DNA from: Shigella phage ESh36
Length of the DNA: 64,000 nucleotides
Strand: one strand, 5' to 3'
Sequence record: ON528746
This document shows positions 3,752 to 45,209 of this stretch, piece by piece; the first letter of the stretch is position 1, and every line of letters begins with the position of its first letter. The notes below the pieces were generated by a model, which was given only the letters and a program-made list of their open reading frames with translations, had not been told where the DNA came from and did not search any database. Position numbers and translations under genes: made by a program.

Positions 3752-4438
3752 TTAAAAATCGTGGGTAGAATCAGCTTCAAGAGCTACTACATAATTCGCG
3801 TGTTCACCTTCAAATTTAGCAGCACCTTGTTTACCTTTTGCCCAGAGCAGAAGTTTATAATTTCCTGGTTGCATTTTCATATTTGCCATATTGATAATGA
3901 AATTAAATGTATTTTCACCGTCATAATCACCAAGAGTCAAAGAATATTTAACACGGGTCAAAGCAGAATCTTCTACTTTATTAAAACCGTTAATTACGAT
4001 TTTACCTTCTTTTATTGTGATAGCAATTGTATCAATCTGCAGACCACGAGATACACGCAACAGTTGTTGAAGGTCTTCAGCTTTAATTTCAGTAACAACA
4101 GATGCTACCGGGAATGGAATTGGTTTATTAGGAGCCACTACTGTGCTCGGATCAGCTGCTGGCCAAAAAATTGTTGAACGAGCATCAGCAATTTTAATAT
4201 TTCCATCTTCTGACTGGGAAATTTCTGCATCGTCATTAACTAGGGACAGAATACCGAGAAAACCGTTCAAATCGTAAATTGCTACATCAAAATCAATAGT
4301 GTCAGAAATATTTGCTTCCGCATAAGTTGTACCATTAACTGCGCGAGTCATAATAAATTGACCAGATTTAAGCATAATACCAGAGTTAATAGTAGCGAAA
4401 TTTTTAAGCAGAGCAGTAGTATCTTTAGACAGTTTCAT
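3752..4438 (-). CDS. 45: Sliding clamp gp45
   Basis: 228 aa; MKLSKDTTALLKNFATINSGIMLK... matches T4 gp45. Confidence 0.9.
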   Translation of the reverse strand: MKLSKDTTALLKNFATINSGIMLKSGQFIMTRAVNGTTYAEANISDTIDFDVAIYDLNGFLGILSLVNDDAEISQSEDGNIKIADARSTIFWPAADPSTVVAPNKPIPFPVASVVTEIKAEDLQQLLRVSRGLQIDTIAITIKEGKIVINGFNKVEDSALTRVKYSLTLGDYDGENTFNFIINMANMKMQPGNYKLLLWAKGKQGAAKFEGEHANYVVALEADSTHDF

Positions 4439-4493
4439 GTAATTTCCTTCAATTCAAATGAGATTTAATTTTATAACTAATTTAATAAAGCAA

Positions 4494-4883
4494 TTAACGA
4501 TTAAAATCAGAAGCAATTGTTTCCGCAACAATTTGAGCAGCAACAATTAGACGTTCATCTGCATTACCGCAATAATCATCTTCAAGGCGTTCACCACATG
4601 AAGTCATAATAAATTTAGCACCAGCATTTAAAGATTCTGTCGTATGTTTGCGCATTAGTTCAATCCATTTATTACTTACTTCACGATCGATAGCTTCATA
4701 ATACGCATGACGAGCAGGTGCAGATTTAATTTTATTCTGAATAACTTCCATTGCGTTATCAGAAAGAGACAAAACCCATGCTCGACGAATTTTATTTTGG
4801 TTTTGTGGATTTGAATCAGAACGCACGTGTTTTGGCTGAATATCTTTTACATCAACAGTATAATTCACAGTAATTTTAGTCAT
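4494..4883 (-). CDS. rpbA: RNA polymerase-binding protein RpbA (by synteny)
   Basis: 129 aa ORF between 45 and 46, the size and position of T4 rpbA. Confidence 0.5.
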
Positions 4884-5136: not shown

Positions 5137-6819
5137 TTAAACCATTACAGTAAATCGACCAACTTTCTTCATTTGAAGATGCTGACCATATGCTTGCGGG
5201 TCGTGGTCTCTATGTGAAATAACAAAAACATTAGTATTTTTTAAACTATCTAAAATAGTTGAAATAGCTTTTACACCTTCAACATCAGTTGCTGAATCAA
5301 AAACTTCATCGAGAATTAGTGTGTTTATTTTAACACCTGAAACTTTTTCAGCAATATCACGCCAAGTAAATAGAAGAGCAATATCAATTCGTGCTTTTTC
5401 GCCTTGACTGAATGAAGCATAACTAAAATCTTCACGACCACGGGATTTAATTGTCTCATTAAATTCTTCATCTAATGTAAACACATAATCCGCTTCCATT
5501 ATTTTAAGATAATGGTTAATCTGCTTATTAAATAATGGAATGTACTTTTTAATAATAGCACCTTTAATACCAGAATCTTTGAGCATATCAGTCAAAATTC
5601 CTCTGTGGTATTTTTCCATTACTAAATTAGTTTTTGTCTTAACAATTTTATCAAGTTCTTCTTGAAGCAGTGCTATTTCATCAGCATGGTCAATAAACTC
5701 GGATGATGCTTTTTCTATAGCTGCTTTAACTTTTTTAGCTTTATCTACAGTCGTGATTAGAGATTGCTTTTTATTGCGAATATCATTTGCCAACGTCTGT
5801 TGGGTTTTAATATTATCTCGGTATTCATCAACGAGAACTTTTAAATTATCACGATGTGTTGAAAGCTGTTCAAACGAATGCGTGCATTCAGAAACTTTAT
5901 CTTTAATTTTAGAAACAACTTTATCACCGGAACTTAATTGTGACAAACAGGTTGGACATAATCCACCTTCGTGATACATATTAATGACTTTATTATACGA
6001 GTCAATTTTTGATTTAATTAAAAATGCTTCTTGGCCGATTTTATTAAATGCATCAGTCGGGTCTTCATCCAAAACAATATTAACTAATCTTTCATTAGCT
6101 TCTTCTATTTCCGATTTTAGCGTTCTAGCTTCTTTTGCCAAATCATCATACATATTCTGTAGACGAGTAAGGTTATCACCAGTTAATTTTTTCTGGCGTT
6201 CAACGTTATCATTATATATTTTAATTTGTTGGATAATACTATCTTTTTTAACATCAAGCACTTGGTTTTGTGAATTTAATTCACGTATTAGTGCTTTATT
6301 AAGCTTATCCATTTCAGCTAATGTTCCTACCTCGAGCAGGTCTTCCACAAGCTTTCTTCGTGCAGGGGTCGACAAACCCATGAAAGGGGTATACCCTGCT
6401 GTACCAAGGACAACAATCTGCTTGAAACTGGCATATGACATTCCGATAAGCTGTTCAAATTCTGCTTGGAAATCTTTACTGCTGGCAGATTCATTAAGAC
6501 GTGTACCGTTAACGGTGATTTCGAAAACGTTTGGTTTTTGCCCTCTTTTGATATAGTACTTTTTCTCATCATATTCCATCCACAGTTCAACTAAAAGTTC
6601 TTTCTTATTTGTGCTGTTTATTAATTGACCTTTCTTTACATCACGAAATGGCTTGCCAAAAAGCCCAAATGTGATGGCTTCTAACATAGTAGACTTACCA
6701 CCACCATTTCGTCCAGTAATAAGAGTTTTTTGAACCTTATCTAGTTGAATGTCAATAGGATTTCCACCTACTGACATTATATTTTGATACCTAACTCGGT
6801 TTAGTTTAAAATTCTTCAC
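5137..6819 (-). CDS. 46: Recombination nuclease ATPase subunit gp46 (SbcC/Rad50-like)
   Basis: 560 aa; Walker A GRNGGGKST; long coiled-coil middle; matches T4 gp46. Confidence 0.9.
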   Translation of the reverse strand: MKNFKLNRVRYQNIMSVGGNPIDIQLDKVQKTLITGRNGGGKSTMLEAITFGLFGKPFRDVKKGQLINSTNKKELLVELWMEYDEKKYYIKRGQKPNVFEITVNGTRLNESASSKDFQAEFEQLIGMSYASFKQIVVLGTAGYTPFMGLSTPARRKLVEDLLEVGTLAEMDKLNKALIRELNSQNQVLDVKKDSIIQQIKIYNDNVERQKKLTGDNLTRLQNMYDDLAKEARTLKSEIEEANERLVNIVLDEDPTDAFNKIGQEAFLIKSKIDSYNKVINMYHEGGLCPTCLSQLSSGDKVVSKIKDKVSECTHSFEQLSTHRDNLKVLVDEYRDNIKTQQTLANDIRNKKQSLITTVDKAKKVKAAIEKASSEFIDHADEIALLQEELDKIVKTKTNLVMEKYHRGILTDMLKDSGIKGAIIKKYIPLFNKQINHYLKIMEADYVFTLDEEFNETIKSRGREDFSYASFSQGEKARIDIALLFTWRDIAEKVSGVKINTLILDEVFDSATDVEGVKAISTILDSLKNTNVFVISHRDHDPQAYGQHLQMKKVGRFTVMV

Positions 6820-36286: not shown

Positions 36287-36760
36287 TTATTTGAATGATT
36301 TGACGTACTGAATAGAGCCTTTGCTATTCACGAAAGCGATTTTACCATTTTTGTTATACATGGTAGCAGTACGCTGATAACCATAAGTTTGTTTACCAGA
36401 TTGATAACCAACTAATGCGAAATTATCTTCACCCATTTTATTCTGCTTCGCGCGGATACGTTCATGACCATGTGCCATAAGAACCTTAGCGTCGCCAGTT
36501 GCAATGGATCTACGAGTTTTTTCATCTTCAACTGTATTAACAAAGTCGTCAAATGAATCAAATTTAGCGTGAGATTTATTATACAGTTTTCCATCTACTG
36601 CATAATTATATCCCTGTACATCCATCTCAACTTCTGTACCATCATCCAATACAGCAGTGATTTTTTGACCTTTTTTAAATTTCAAAAGATCAGTAAAAGA
36701 TTCAGCGATAATTTGAGAATTAATAGCTGCTTCAGTGATAAATTCTTGATATGTTTTCAT
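36287..36760 (-). CDS. Head internal protein (IP family) with capsid targeting sequence
   Basis: 157 aa; N-terminal MKTYQEFITEA leader typical of T4 internal proteins (cleaved after the Glu by the prohead protease). Confidence 0.6.
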   Translation of the reverse strand: MKTYQEFITEAAINSQIIAESFTDLLKFKKGQKITAVLDDGTEVEMDVQGYNYAVDGKLYNKSHAKFDSFDDFVNTVEDEKTRRSIATGDAKVLMAHGHERIRAKQNKMGEDNFALVGYQSGKQTYGYQRTATMYNKNGKIAFVNSKGSIQYVKSFK

Positions 36761-36769
36761 GTGTTTCCT

Positions 36770-37186
36770 TTAAATGTAAATAGTTTTACCGTAGTATTTA
36801 TACCAGTGTGGCTTCATTAAAATTTTTTCATCGAGTCGTTGTTGACTCAACTTAATAGCTGATTTGCATGGATTATAATCATTTTTCCATTCTGCTGAAA
36901 TATCGCTGATGTCAGGAACTTCAGTATCTTTTATACTGAACCCACGTTTTAAGCATTCCGTTATAATGTCTGATTGACGCTTTCGCAAAAATTCTAACTT
37001 ATCGTAAAAGAACGTAACATGACCAGAACCTAAAATAAACTCGGAAGATATTTTAAAATCTTTAACCCGTTTACCATTTGCCACATGTTTACGAACTATA
37101 CCAAAAACACGTGGCAATTCACGGTATTCTGCGATTAAATGTTGATCAGCAAGTTCAGATACTAAAGTCAAATTAATACGAGTCAT
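36770..37186 (-). CDS. denV: Endonuclease V (pyrimidine dimer DNA glycosylase)
   Basis: 138 aa; [17 protein letters not shown]...[11 protein letters not shown]...; matches T4 DenV. Confidence 0.9.
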
Positions 37187-41554: not shown

Positions 41555-41580
41555 CAAAAAGCCCTATCATTTAGATAGGG
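41555..41580 (-). terminator. Intrinsic terminator downstream of the internal-protein gene
   Basis: CCCTATC-ATTTA-GATAGGG hairpin followed on the transcript by CUUUUU. Confidence 0.6.
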
Positions 41581-41588
41581 ATTTAAAA

Positions 41589-42152
41589 TTATTTACCTAG
41601 TTTACTTATTATAGCTTCTGCAGCAGCTTTTAGCTTAGATGCAGTGTTAATACGATTTTTAATTTCAGTATACGCATCGCCAAGAACATCAAGGCTATCA
41701 GAATAAACACTTACACTATTGCGTTCGCTATTTGAAATAGAACCTTTAGTTTTGCGGTCAAAATCGGTGTACACGTCTTGAAGATCGCGGGCTGCCTTCT
41801 TTGCATCATCCAATGCATCAAGAGCTTTATTCAAAGCATTAACGTATTTTTTAGTGTCGAACATATTCTTAGAAATTTTAACAGGTGCGCGTTCAGGAGT
41901 AGCTAACACAGATTTAGGAACCTGAGCGCCAGATGCCAATTTCTTAGAAATTTTGAAAAATGCTTTATTGAATTTATTTTCTTGACTCATTGTAAAAGAA
42001 CTATTATCGATGTTGTACATTTCAATAGCTTTAGCTTTCCACTTAAGAAAATCGCCGCGGTCTTTTGGGTCCAATTGGAAGAATACTTTAGTAAGATCTG
42101 CTTCAGATGGTAATTTTGCTGCTTCGGTTAAAAATTCGGCATAGGTTTTCAT
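41589..42152 (-). CDS. Head internal protein (IP family) with capsid targeting sequence
   Basis: 187 aa; N-terminal MKTYAEFLTEA leader. Confidence 0.6.
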   Translation of the reverse strand: MKTYAEFLTEAAKLPSEADLTKVFFQLDPKDRGDFLKWKAKAIEMYNIDNSSFTMSQENKFNKAFFKISKKLASGAQVPKSVLATPERAPVKISKNMFDTKKYVNALNKALDALDDAKKAARDLQDVYTDFDRKTKGSISNSERNSVSVYSDSLDVLGDAYTEIKNRINTASKLKAAAEAIISKLGK

Positions 42153-42242
42153 TTAAAATCCTTGAAATAATTTATCGGTTGGTTATTAATTATTTATTAC
42201 TTTGTTACTATCCGTAACAGCGTTATCCGAGTGATTCAAACT

Positions 42243-42270
42243 AAAAAGCCCCAACCTTTCGGTCGGGGCT
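42243..42270 (-). terminator. Strong intrinsic terminator ending the tRNA/small-RNA transcription unit
   Basis: 10-bp stem AGCCCCGACC/GGUUGGGGCU with GAAA loop, followed by UUUUU on the transcript. Confidence 0.7.
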
Positions 42271-42272
42271 AA

Positions 42273-42586
42273 GCCTTGCGGCAACCTTGTCGGGGTTCCA
42301 CCTGCTAAGGCAAGTGTTTGTACGAAACGCCGGGACTTGAACCCGGTTATTAAGTAGTTGACGCTACTCAATATTTTTAAAAGGCCATATCTCGACCATA
42401 TCCGAACGTTCCGTCAAAAACGCTACTCGGCTTACGGCAAAGATATTTCCTCGAATCGATAATTCGGTGCGCCGTTTCTGCTGTGATATAAGGGGACATT
42501 AACAAAACATAAAGATTTATTAATGCCAGTCCTTAAACAGGGAACATCAGTCCGACGACTTACCGGTAGCGACCCGGTTTCTTGTC
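42273..42586 (-). ncRNA. Candidate stable small RNA(s) between tRNA-Arg and the terminator (T4 species 1/2 position)
   Basis: No credible ORF; lies inside the tRNA operon before its terminator; contains a T-arm-like CCGGG-UUCAAGU-CCCGG element; boundaries not determined. Confidence 0.3.
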
Positions 42587-42662
42587 TGGTCGAGGCAGTA
42601 GGGATCGAACCTACGACCCAGGACTTAGAAGGTCCTTGCTCTTCCTTCTGAGCTATGCCTCG
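42587..42662 (-). tRNA. tRNA-Arg (anticodon UCU)
   Basis: Manual cloverleaf: acceptor CGAGGCA, anticodon loop CUUCUAA, T-loop GGTTCGATCC, CCA encoded. Confidence 0.85.
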
Positions 42663-42666
42663 TATT

Positions 42667-42741
42667 TGGCGGACGTGATAGGATTCGAACCTATAACCAA
42701 TCGCTTAACAGGCGATCGCTCTGCCATTGAGCTACACATCC
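42667..42741 (-). tRNA. tRNA-Asn (anticodon GUU)
   Basis: Manual cloverleaf: D-stem GCTC/GAGC, anticodon stem ATCGC/GCGAT, loop CUGUUAA, T-arm ATAGG-TTCGAAT-CCTAT, CCA encoded. Confidence 0.8.
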
Positions 42742-42745
42742 AAAT

Positions 42746-42832
42746 TGGTGGGGAGTGATGGAGTCGAACCACCCGAGTCGCAATGACAATGAATTTACAG
42801 TCCACACCGCTACCTCTACGGGATAACTCCCC
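42746..42832 (-). tRNA. tRNA-Tyr (anticodon GUA), type II with long variable arm
   Basis: 87 nt; anticodon loop CUGUAAA; variable arm GTC-ATTGC-GAC; T-loop GGTTCGACTCC; CCA encoded. Confidence 0.75.
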
Positions 42833-42845
42833 TTAATTCTTAATT

Positions 42846-42920
42846 TGGTGGCCCTGGGTGGAATTGAACCACCATCTGGCGATTATGAGTCGCTTGCTTG
42901 AACCTTCCAGCTACAGGGCC
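42846..42920 (-). tRNA. tRNA-Ile (anticodon CAU, Ile2/lysidine type; Met not excluded)
   Basis: Anticodon arm GCGAC-UCAUAAU-CGC as in E. coli tRNA-Ile2; acceptor GGCCCTG/CAGGGCC; unusual short D-stem. Confidence 0.7.
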
Positions 42921-42921
42921 T

Positions 42922-42997
42922 TGGTGCTGATTGACGGAATCGAACCGCCGACCTTCTCATTACAAGTGAGTTGCTCTACCTACTGAGCTAAATCAGC
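42922..42997 (-). tRNA. tRNA-Thr (anticodon UGU)
   Basis: Canonical cloverleaf; anticodon loop CUUGUAA; CCA encoded. Confidence 0.85.
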
Positions 42998-43002
42998 AAA
43001 AC

Positions 43003-43092
43003 TGGCGGAGGCGATAGGATTTGAACCTATGAGTCGCCGGAGCGACTGCCGGTTTTCAAGACCGGTGCATTAAACCACTCTGCCACGCCTCC
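43003..43092 (-). tRNA. tRNA-Ser (anticodon UGA), type II
   Basis: 90 nt; matches remembered T4 tRNA-Ser; anticodon loop CUUGAAA; long variable arm. Confidence 0.88.
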
Positions 43093-43094
43093 AG

Positions 43095-43168
43095 TCTCCA
43101 TACAAGGATTTGAACCTTGGACCTCCTGATCCCAAATCAGGCGCTCTACCAAACTGAGCTACACGGAG
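43095..43168 (-). tRNA. tRNA-Pro (anticodon UGG); 3' CCA not encoded
   Basis: Anticodon loop UUUGGGA; followed by CU and then the tRNA-Ser 5' end (Pro-Ser dimeric precursor arrangement). Confidence 0.85.
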
Positions 43169-43178
43169 TAAATTAAAT

Positions 43179-43252
<74 letters not shown>

Positions 43253-43257
43253 AAATT

Positions 43258-43344
43258 TGGTGCGAGAAGTGGGACTCGAACCCACAAGGAAATCATTCCG
43301 CAGCATTTTAAGTGCTGTGCCTTTACCAATTTGACCATTCTCGC
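43258..43344 (-). tRNA. tRNA-Leu (anticodon UAA), type II
   Basis: 87 nt; matches remembered T4 tRNA-Leu (GCGAGAAUGGUCAAAUUGGUAAAGGCACAGCACUUAAAAUGCUGCGG...). Confidence 0.9.
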
Positions 43345-43345
43345 G

Positions 43346-43418
43346 CTGGGAATAAAGGACTCGAACCTTTGCATCTAGCAGTCAAAGTGCTATGCCTTAC
43401 CAACTTGGCTAATTCCCA
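43346..43418 (-). tRNA. tRNA-Gln (anticodon UUG); 3' CCA not encoded
   Basis: Starts UGGGAAU; anticodon loop CUUUGAC; discriminator G then one C before the tRNA-Leu 5' end. Confidence 0.88.
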
Positions 43419-44951: not shown

Positions 44952-45209
44952 TTATTTTAAATCTTCTAATCGTTTCTTCATCTTAGAACCATTTTTAGCA
45001 ATTTCTCCTGCATCGGAGCATAATGCTAAAAGCGCTTTAACTTTAGTTTGATCTCCTTTAAAAGACGAAGGATCGACTGCAGCAGCAAGTTCTTTAATAC
45101 GAGAGAAAAGACGCTCAGCTTCAGCTAAAGCCATTCCAAGCTTTACTTCCATACCGTGGGAAGATTCAATGATAGTAGTTTTTGTAGCAAACTCTTTGAA
45201 AGTTTTCAT
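44952..45209 (-). CDS. Head internal protein, IPI-position allele with capsid targeting sequence
   Basis: 85 aa; N-terminal MKTFKEFATKTTIIE leader; sits just upstream of 57B as T4 ipI does, but the mature part differs from remembered T4 IPI. Confidence 0.5.
   Translation of the reverse strand: MKTFKEFATKTTIIESSHGMEVKLGMALAEAERLFSRIKELAAAVDPSSFKGDQTKVKALLALCSDAGEIAKNGSKMKKRLEDLK

Follow-up and report, generated by a model that had tools for sequence, protein, structure and literature searches.

The open reading frame on the minus strand at 41589 to 42152 of the window, the 64,000-nucleotide stretch of Shigella phage ESh36 DNA (ON528746) analyzed here, probably codes for an internal head protein (Ip) of the T-even type, from a family that has yet to be annotated as such. 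We refer to the frame and its 187-aa product as ORF187. As far as its sequence goes, ORF187 has the features of the Ip class and, among these, lacks only the classical locus. The classical ip loci lie next to 57B or next to e/denV, and ORF187 lies between rnaC and e.8, which is a matter of location and not of mechanism. The original prediction had described the frame as an internal-protein-like gene, and every sequence-level part of that reading holds.

The window is a Tequatrovirus (T4-like) segment. Its region 41000 to 43500 matches 1062 phage records, with vB_EcoM_JB75 at the top (97.8%). The minus strand carries, in order, the tRNA genes (43418 to 42587), the rnaD/rnaC stretch, ORF187 (42152 to 41589), e.8 (41359 to 41096), e.7, and e.6 onward. 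We assigned e.8 by its 96% identity to T4 e.8, and positions 42240 to 42632 are about 90% identical to the T4 stretch with rnaC, rnaD, and part of tRNA-Arg. The elements of the gene and its surroundings are these:

Positions 41589 to 42152, minus strand: coding sequence of the 187-aa precursor (ORF187), stop codon included, from the list of open reading frames.
Positions 42123 to 42152, minus strand: codons 1 to 10, MKTYAEFLTE, a leader like a capsid targeting sequence (CTS) with a predicted gp21 cut after E10 (LTE/A, the slash marking the cut), from the pattern and the family alignment.
Positions 42159 to 42163, minus strand: Shine-Dalgarno (SD) sequence AAGGA of ORF187, six nt 5' of the ATG, read from the sequence and invariant in seven relatives.
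Positions 42191 to 42198, minus strand: AATAAATA, a T4-late-promoter-like octamer (consensus TATAAATA) starting 46 nt 5' of the ATG, from sequence and comparison.
Positions 42242 to 42270, minus strand: upstream terminator ending the tRNA/rnaD/rnaC unit, the 5' boundary of the cassette, from its 10-bp stem and fold.
Positions 41556 to 41580, minus strand: terminator of ORF187 and 3' end of the cassette, stem CCCTATC...GATAGGG plus CTTTTT, from sequence, fold, and the T4 junction.
Positions 41556 to 42241, minus strand: 686-bp cassette missing from T4, made up of promoter-like motif, SD sequence, ORF, and terminator, from blastn against T4 and a three-way alignment.

A 187-aa frame opening with MKTYAEFLTEA had been predicted here. 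The frame is present and its ATG was verified as the earliest start codon past the upstream stop; the protein begins MKTYAEFLTEAAKLPSEADL. Its predicted placement between e.8 and the tRNA operon agrees with the order given above. T4 was said to carry no ip gene at this site, and in fact it has no gene there of any kind, as only 285 bp of non-coding DNA separates its e.8 from rnaC.

ORF187 is under purifying selection. In comparisons with RB14 and an IMG/VR relative (L005), pN/pS is 0.05 to 0.10, with 15 to 22 synonymous versus 3 to 8 non-synonymous substitutions. By tblastn the protein is encoded in 164 phage records at 85 to 100% identity, all Tequatrovirus-like, and at most 164 of the 1062 records matching the region carry it. 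RB14, JB75, fPS-90, and the BASEL phages Paracelsus and KarlGJung are among the carriers. Each of the 164 annotates it as hypothetical, the sole point in favor of a frame that arose by chance or was wrongly called as a gene in an intergenic spacer. Against such a reading stand the substitution pattern, homologues in at least five genera, a good SD sequence with a dedicated terminator, and an AF2 model with a pLDDT of 80. The selection and conservation data already refute it, and we leave it next to no probability. The phrog_2280 profile ("unknown function") matches ORF187 with an E of 2e-53, residues 1 to 181 aligning with profile positions 1 to 178 of 178. In RB14 the orthologue (L010, 1501 to 2064) is named RB14ncORF136c, and the record remarks on similarity to RB69ORF148c/149c. 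The RB69 copy may be split by a frameshift, since the RB14 note cites both RB69 frames and BFVD gives RB69ORF149c as 146 aa.

To the 5' side of ORF187, the tRNA cluster (42587 to 43418, minus strand) is one unbroken block of ten genes, including those for tRNA-Asn, tRNA-Tyr, and a tRNA with a CAU anticodon. ARAGORN assigns the last to Met, and the annotation of RB14 and T4 to Ile. T4 encodes eight tRNAs, and its tRNA-Ile and tRNA-Arg genes are separated by segB, a homing endonuclease gene that the window lacks. Two mechanically called ORFs, at 42186 to 42371 and 42377 to 42505 (both minus strand), fall inside the region homologous to T4 rnaC/rnaD. The stretches are annotated in MH355584 as CDSs JB75_0133A and JB75_0133, which are probably spurious protein calls. 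Rfam models gave no match on these rnaC/rnaD-homologous stretches.

The ORF187 family extends beyond Tequatrovirus. An exhaustive HMMER search returned one distant relative, P0013 (31% identity), and tblastn with P0013 returned 350 phage records that overlap with the 164 of ORF187. A profile search returned 30 protein clusters of the family. They come from Karamvirus (KMB19), a Mosigvirus-like phage (JQD51), Winklervirus (CHI14), Kagamiyamavirus (EcS1), and fHe-Yen9-01, and also from the coliphages AnYang, KIT01, and CLB_P2, which we take to be of the Dhakavirus/Gaprivervirus type. The matches in BFVD were homologues only, RB69ORF149c and a fHe-Yen9-01 protein. In all four genomes inspected the homologue comes directly after the tRNA cluster or after an rnaC-type terminator, and the genes farther downstream match the T4 e.x series in size and order, a correspondence judged by these two features and not by homology. 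With the family at the same place across genera, it is T4 and not ESh36 that is exceptional at this locus. No homologue was found in the 62 kb of T4 scanned (1 to 50000 and 64000 to 76000). Unlike the hypervariable classical ip genes, the ORF187 family is conserved in position across genera, which could mean a different, more general role.

Relative to T4, the cassette is inserted directly after the rnaC terminator and consists of an 89-nt leader region, ORF187, and the gene's own terminator. By blastn and three-way alignment, T4 joins the rnaC terminator to the e.8 upstream region at ...AGCCCCGACCGAAAGGTTGGGGCTTTTT/GGTATCTAAGCC..., and in the window the cassette ends on the e.8 side at ...CCCTATCTAAATGATAGGGCTTTTT/GGTATCTAGGCC (here the slash marks the joint). 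These insert ends place GGGCTTTTT at both cassette junctions. The terminator claimed at 41555 to 41580 is real. Its 7-bp stem (41580 to 41562) is followed by CTTTTT and folds at -11 kcal/mol (z = -2.7), with one of 200 shuffles folding equally well. The rnaC terminator on the other side has a 10-bp stem, folds at -21.7 kcal/mol (z = -4.1), and is identical in T4. As the cassette has its own terminator and the strong rnaC terminator stands upstream, ORF187 is insulated on both sides. It is a self-contained unit between two terminators, at a site that is empty in T4.

We also examined how ORF187 might be expressed. A scan for sigma-70 promoters on the minus strand upstream of the gene found none, and no MotA box with an acceptable -10 (TAnnnT) was found there by eye. 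The octamer AATAAATA departs from TATAAATA at its first base. In T4-like late promoters the T at -13 is poorly conserved, with A or T common at that position (Nolan et al. 2006, PMC1524935). A lone match carries little weight, as the window has 17 copies of WATAAATA versus 24 expected and so shows no enrichment; positional conservation alone supports the octamer as promoter-like. Across seven Tequatrovirus relatives ATAAATAATTAATAACC is invariant, and the first base of the octamer is A or G. In every lineage examined, and also in a paralogue of ORF187, a NATAAATA motif stands 33 to 46 nt 5' of the ATG. Karamvirus KMB19, Mosigvirus-like JQD51, and the JB75 and fD1 cassette with the paralogue have it as a perfect TATAAATA; CHI14, EcS1, RB14, CT01, and the metagenomic contig L006 have GATAAATA. 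In the window, JB75, fD1, JQD51, and KMB19, the lineages with upstream sequence read far enough, the motif comes after a terminator. The surrounding intergenic sequences are visibly different between genera, as seen without a cross-genus alignment. From the comparison of NATAAATA across lineages we infer that transcription of ORF187 is late and gp55-dependent.

Mutagenesis of the T4 IPIII leader found that targeting depends critically on positions 4 and 7, and processing on positions 8 and 10 (PMC9026906). At these four positions ORF187 has Y, F, L, and E. Its N-terminus resembles a CTS, a signal of some 10 residues in which position 4 is aromatic (here Y4) and position 7 is Phe (F7). The leader ends in the (L/I)-x-E motif of gp21, L8-T9-E10/A11, the only such site in the protein, where cleavage is predicted. 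It matches the leader of T4 IPII/IPIII (MKTYQEFIAEA) at 8 of 11 positions and that of a 157-aa ip gene in the window, ip157 (MKTYQEFITE/A), at 10 of 12. Past residue 12 we found no similarity of ORF187 to IPI, IPII, IPIII, or the window's other ip genes; among known IPs, too, similarity ends after the leader. The strict pattern MK[TS][YF].[ED]F[LI].E has two matches in the six frames of the window, ORF187 and ip157, and none in 200 shuffled windows. Together with the residues kept at the critical positions, this bears out the leader as the putative capsid targeting sequence that the original prediction had seen in it. The same prediction had counted ORF187 as a second internal-protein-like gene. 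The gene is Ip-like; counted with a looser pattern, which adds an Ip5-type gene at 44952 to 45209, it is the third CTS-like gene and not the second.

Both other genes lie at classical loci. The ip157 gene (36287 to 36760, minus strand) is at the ipII/ipIII locus and has a perfect TATAAATA at 36802, which begins 42 nt 5' of the start codon. In that form, the window contains no orthologue of IPII or IPIII. The Ip5-type gene (85 aa, minus strand) is at the ipI locus, belongs to phrog_3499 ("internal head protein"), and has an early-type promoter.

The leader ranks with the best-conserved stretches of the ORF187 family, whose members are otherwise only 23 to 30% identical to ORF187. In a 22-sequence alignment of the family, F7 of the leader never varies, and conservation is 90% or higher at M1, E6, L8, and E10. 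A second LxE-A site, near residue 17, is seen in most members. In L006, a T4-like contig, the homologue is P0013, which starts MITFNEFLNES. After P0013 and a terminator this contig encodes an unrelated 144-aa protein (2092 to 2526) that starts MITFKQFLNES and has precomputed ART-PolyVal/DUF3990 hits. The gene is preceded by CATAAATA, itself after the terminator. That an unrelated gene shares the leader type of P0013 makes the leader a portable module. T4 packages an ADP-ribosyltransferase (Alt), and an ART with an Ip-type leader would fit the leader as a mark of proteins for injection. The L006 gene is a candidate packaged ADP-ribosyltransferase.

To judge by T4 gene 61.1, the CTS motif is not fully specific. 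This gene (NC_000866 18966 to 19130, L016, minus strand; 54 aa, hypothetical) starts with MKTFKEFIKEDMVAGD. In the 62 kb of T4 scanned, its product gp61.1 (MKTFKEFIKE) matches the strict pattern, with an IxE site at positions 8 to 10. The product is not known as a packaged protein. Either it is an unrecognized one or it advises caution on the specificity of the motif.

A paralogue of ORF187 is encoded at the same site in other phages. In JB75 the site between rnaC and e.8 holds two cassettes. The first consists of the rnaC terminator, TATAAATA, JB75_0134 (157 aa, MKSYAQFLNE/A), and a second, 30-nt copy of the rnaC terminator. The second consists of AATAAATA, the ORF187 orthologue, and its own terminator. 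Phage fD1 has the first cassette only, with direct terminator repeats on both flanks, and lacks ORF187. The 157-aa paralogue gene is not in the window; its positions elsewhere are these:

JB75 (L001), positions 4279 to 4752: gene for the 157-aa paralogue.
fD1 (L007), positions 5943 to 6416: gene for the 157-aa paralogue.

JB75_0134 corresponds to fD1 g140 and to e112_137 of vB_EcoM_112. It is annotated as hypothetical and found in 512 phage records. Aligned by hhalign, the JB75_0134 and ORF187 families gave a probability of 96% (E 1.2e-9, 152 columns) at about 24% identity, by which the 157-aa family is remotely paralogous to that of ORF187. Four states of the site are seen: T4 has no cassette, fD1 has just the first, the window and RB14 have just the second, and JB75 has both. 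By sequence these states look like gain and loss through recombination at the terminator repeats, a logic comparable to the PeSL shuffling in RB49 and phi1 (PMC2839356).

We searched the full-text literature for a virion proteome of a phage encoding ORF187 or a close homologue, the locus tags RB14ORF136, Shfl2p135, RB69ORF148c/149c, and JB75_0135 included, and found none; the fPS-90 paper has no proteomics in it. The paralogue has been seen. LC-MS/MS of fD1 virions lists g140 as a stringent "PPAP" (particle-associated) protein (PMC8309999 Table S3). The same list includes fD1 g129 (157 aa, ipII/III locus, "Head protein"; PMC8309999 Table S3), which by size and position we take to be the counterpart of ip157. 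In all, 113 to 137 of the 277 phage proteins were found in the fD1 preparation (PMC8309999). As DenV, lysozyme e, NudE, and thymidine kinase also scored as particle-associated, the dataset is not specific for packaging, and the detection of g140 backs packaging of the paralogue weakly. If processed, g140 would have AVLNEASSTEIQAVAK or ASSTEIQAVAK as its N-terminal peptide.

ORF187 might instead be a cytoplasmic accessory protein, made late or by read-through and left unpackaged, with a CTS-like N-terminus that is a relic of recombination at conserved 5' ends of genes or has another use such as translation initiation or mRNA context. The similar leader of T4 gp61.1, which is not a known internal protein, would fit this account, as would the literature search, in which no virion detection of the ORF187 product was found, and a promoter motif that is imperfect and by itself not above chance. 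Against this account, the leader, L8-x-E10 included, is kept among homologues of such low identity. The unrelated neighbor with the same leader in L006 is what is expected of a targeting module and not of a relic, and the paralogue was detected in virion preparations. We consider an unpackaged product unlikely.

An internal head protein cut after E10 would have 177 aa, a mass of 19.6 kDa, and a pI of 9.5. The pI values of T4 IPII and IPIII are 9.56 and 9.65. The original prediction had proposed a structure prediction of the mature part, which we ran with AF2 on the 22-sequence alignment; with 4 sequences the pLDDT was 63, and the 22-sequence run, with a mean pLDDT of 79.7, was used instead. 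The model is helical, with a short leader helix ahead of the N-terminal domain, and has three parts:

Positions 41934 to 42104, minus strand: residues 17 to 73, predicted three-helix N-terminal domain (AF2, block pLDDT 72 to 89).
Positions 41856 to 41933, minus strand: residues 74 to 99, low-confidence and probably disordered basic linker (pLDDT below 50 for residues 79 to 89).
Positions 41595 to 41855, minus strand: residues 100 to 186, predicted long antiparallel helical C-terminal domain (AF2, pLDDT 84 to 96).

Homologues from other genera have a much longer linker with many Pro, Ala, and Lys residues (alignments A4 and A5). The orthologue of Shigella phage CT01 (L008, 2501 to 2989) has residues 71 to 95 (25 aa) deleted in frame between two KISK repeats. 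The deletion is almost exactly the predicted disordered linker, which is therefore dispensable. The model has no fold match to the PDB and hints at no activity; the best E was not below 0.3 with Foldseek and not below 0.19 in the profile search of the PDB. Pfam returned sub-threshold helical-bundle noise only, for example Cytochrome b562 at 17.7 bits versus a cut-off of 30, and PADLOC had no match for ORF187. Neither by sequence nor by fold is ORF187 similar to the mature domains of Ip1, Ip2, and Ip3, the GmrSD-inhibitor class.

A role on DNA in the manner of a histone has to be taken seriously as an alternative to defense inhibition. ORF187 would then be packaged as a structural or DNA-condensing protein, through histone-like charge neutralization or as an accessory of the scaffold core. 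The mature protein is basic (pI 9.5), the long Pro/Ala/Lys linkers in other genera resemble histone-H1 tails, and family and position are conserved across genera in contrast to the arms-race hypervariability of Ip1-3. However, T4 and many Tequatroviruses have normal heads without the gene, carried by no more than 164 of the 1062 records, and the linker is short in ORF187 and deleted in CT01. All three characterized IPs, moreover, are anti-restriction factors (PMC12373910). We rate a purely structural or DNA-condensing function as quite improbable.

As an internal head protein, ORF187 would be expressed from a small transcription unit of its own, bounded on the 5' side by the rnaC terminator and on the 3' side by its own. 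The gene would be read late from the gp55-type promoter AATAAATA, during prohead building. MKTYAEFLTE would act as the capsid targeting sequence that brings the precursor into the scaffolding core of the prohead, and the gp21 prohead protease would cut after LTE10. The resulting 177-aa basic protein would begin at A11 (AAKLPSEADLTK), be kept in the head with the DNA, and be injected along with it. We infer packaging, cleavage, and injection of the ORF187 product from its sequence. After injection, its most likely role would be to protect the incoming DNA or to block a first-line host defense. An anti-defense role is the weakest step of the proposal, a best guess by analogy that we hold tentatively and with rather more doubt than belief. 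Each of Ip1, Ip2, and Ip3 inhibits its own GmrSD type IV restriction enzyme, and the three have only the leader in common (PMC12373910), and IPIII has a role in host range (PMC9391042). The absence of ORF187 from T4 and most Tequatroviruses suggests that it may be dispensable.

Together, the ORF187 family and the 157-aa paralogue are encoded in several hundred phage records. The site downstream of the tRNA/rnaC cluster could be a third Ip locus, widespread in the Tevenvirinae and lost by T4, with one superfamily (the ORF187 family and the paralogue) whose members are packaged and injected; we give this wider reading not quite an even chance. If true, the locus would have been overlooked because the model phage T4 lost it. 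Its position and architecture are kept across genera, unlike those of Ip1-3, so its proteins may be directed at a conserved target in the host or at a defense class beyond the GmrSD variants known so far. Internal proteins are the earliest phage proteins to encounter the host. A 2025 paper that showed all three T4 IPs to be specific GmrSD inhibitors described two Ip loci, and ip4-10 tested against further GmrSD variants gave no new pairs (PMC12373910). Our analysis adds a leader-bearing family at a putative third site, in at least 164 records as ORF187, 350 with P0013 (overlapping), and 512 for the paralogue, all of them annotated as hypothetical. None of the database records examined names ORF187 as an Ip; the original ip4-ip10 list (Repoila et al. 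1994) lay outside this comparison, and an earlier notice is possible. These proteins are new candidates to match with orphan defense systems and to use in engineering the host range of T4-like phages for therapy. They are also a natural test of how well a 10-residue targeting signal predicts packaging. No new principle is involved, as the Ip class, its signal, and the finding of ip genes by their leaders are already established; what is new is the member and the locus.

Among known systems, the cassette resembles moron or PeSL-type mobile cassettes in phage hyperplastic regions in being a single accessory gene with a promoter-like signal and a terminator. Like PeSLs, it comes and goes cleanly between conserved neighbors and has short repeats where it joins them (PMC2839356). 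PeSLs, however, have strong early sigma-70 promoters and the ORF187 cassette only a late-type promoter-like signal, and the repeated element at the cassette site is, unlike in PeSLs, a terminator. The JB75_0134 cassette has the same site after the rnaC terminator and the same architecture of terminator, late promoter, CTS gene, and terminator. It differs from that of ORF187 in its perfect TATAAATA and in the direct repeats of the rnaC terminator, about 30 nt long, on its flanks. The paralogue also has virion MS support, if non-specific, which ORF187 does not.

With T4 IPII and IPIII, encoded at the ipII/ipIII locus beside gene e, ORF187 shares the leader MKTYxEF(I/L)xE/A and the protease site. 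Its predicted mature pI is like theirs (9.5 versus 9.6), and its precursor is close in size to that of IPIII (187 versus 193 aa). Like theirs, its gene is an accessory one, probably non-essential, that some close relatives have and others lack. Unlike IPII and IPIII, ORF187 lies between rnaC and e.8 and has no similarity to them past residue 12. The T4 ipII and ipIII genes have early-type promoters upstream, whereas ORF187 has the late-type motif only and is insulated by terminators. T4 IPI (Ip1), the GmrSD inhibitor of the ipI locus beside 57B, is likewise a leader-bearing injected protein, as ORF187 would be. ORF187 differs from it in having a short leader of the IPII/III type and an unrelated mature part. 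Outside Tequatrovirus, however, the second LxE-A of the ORF187 family, near residue 17, is like the end of the long 19-residue IPI leader (ITE/A).
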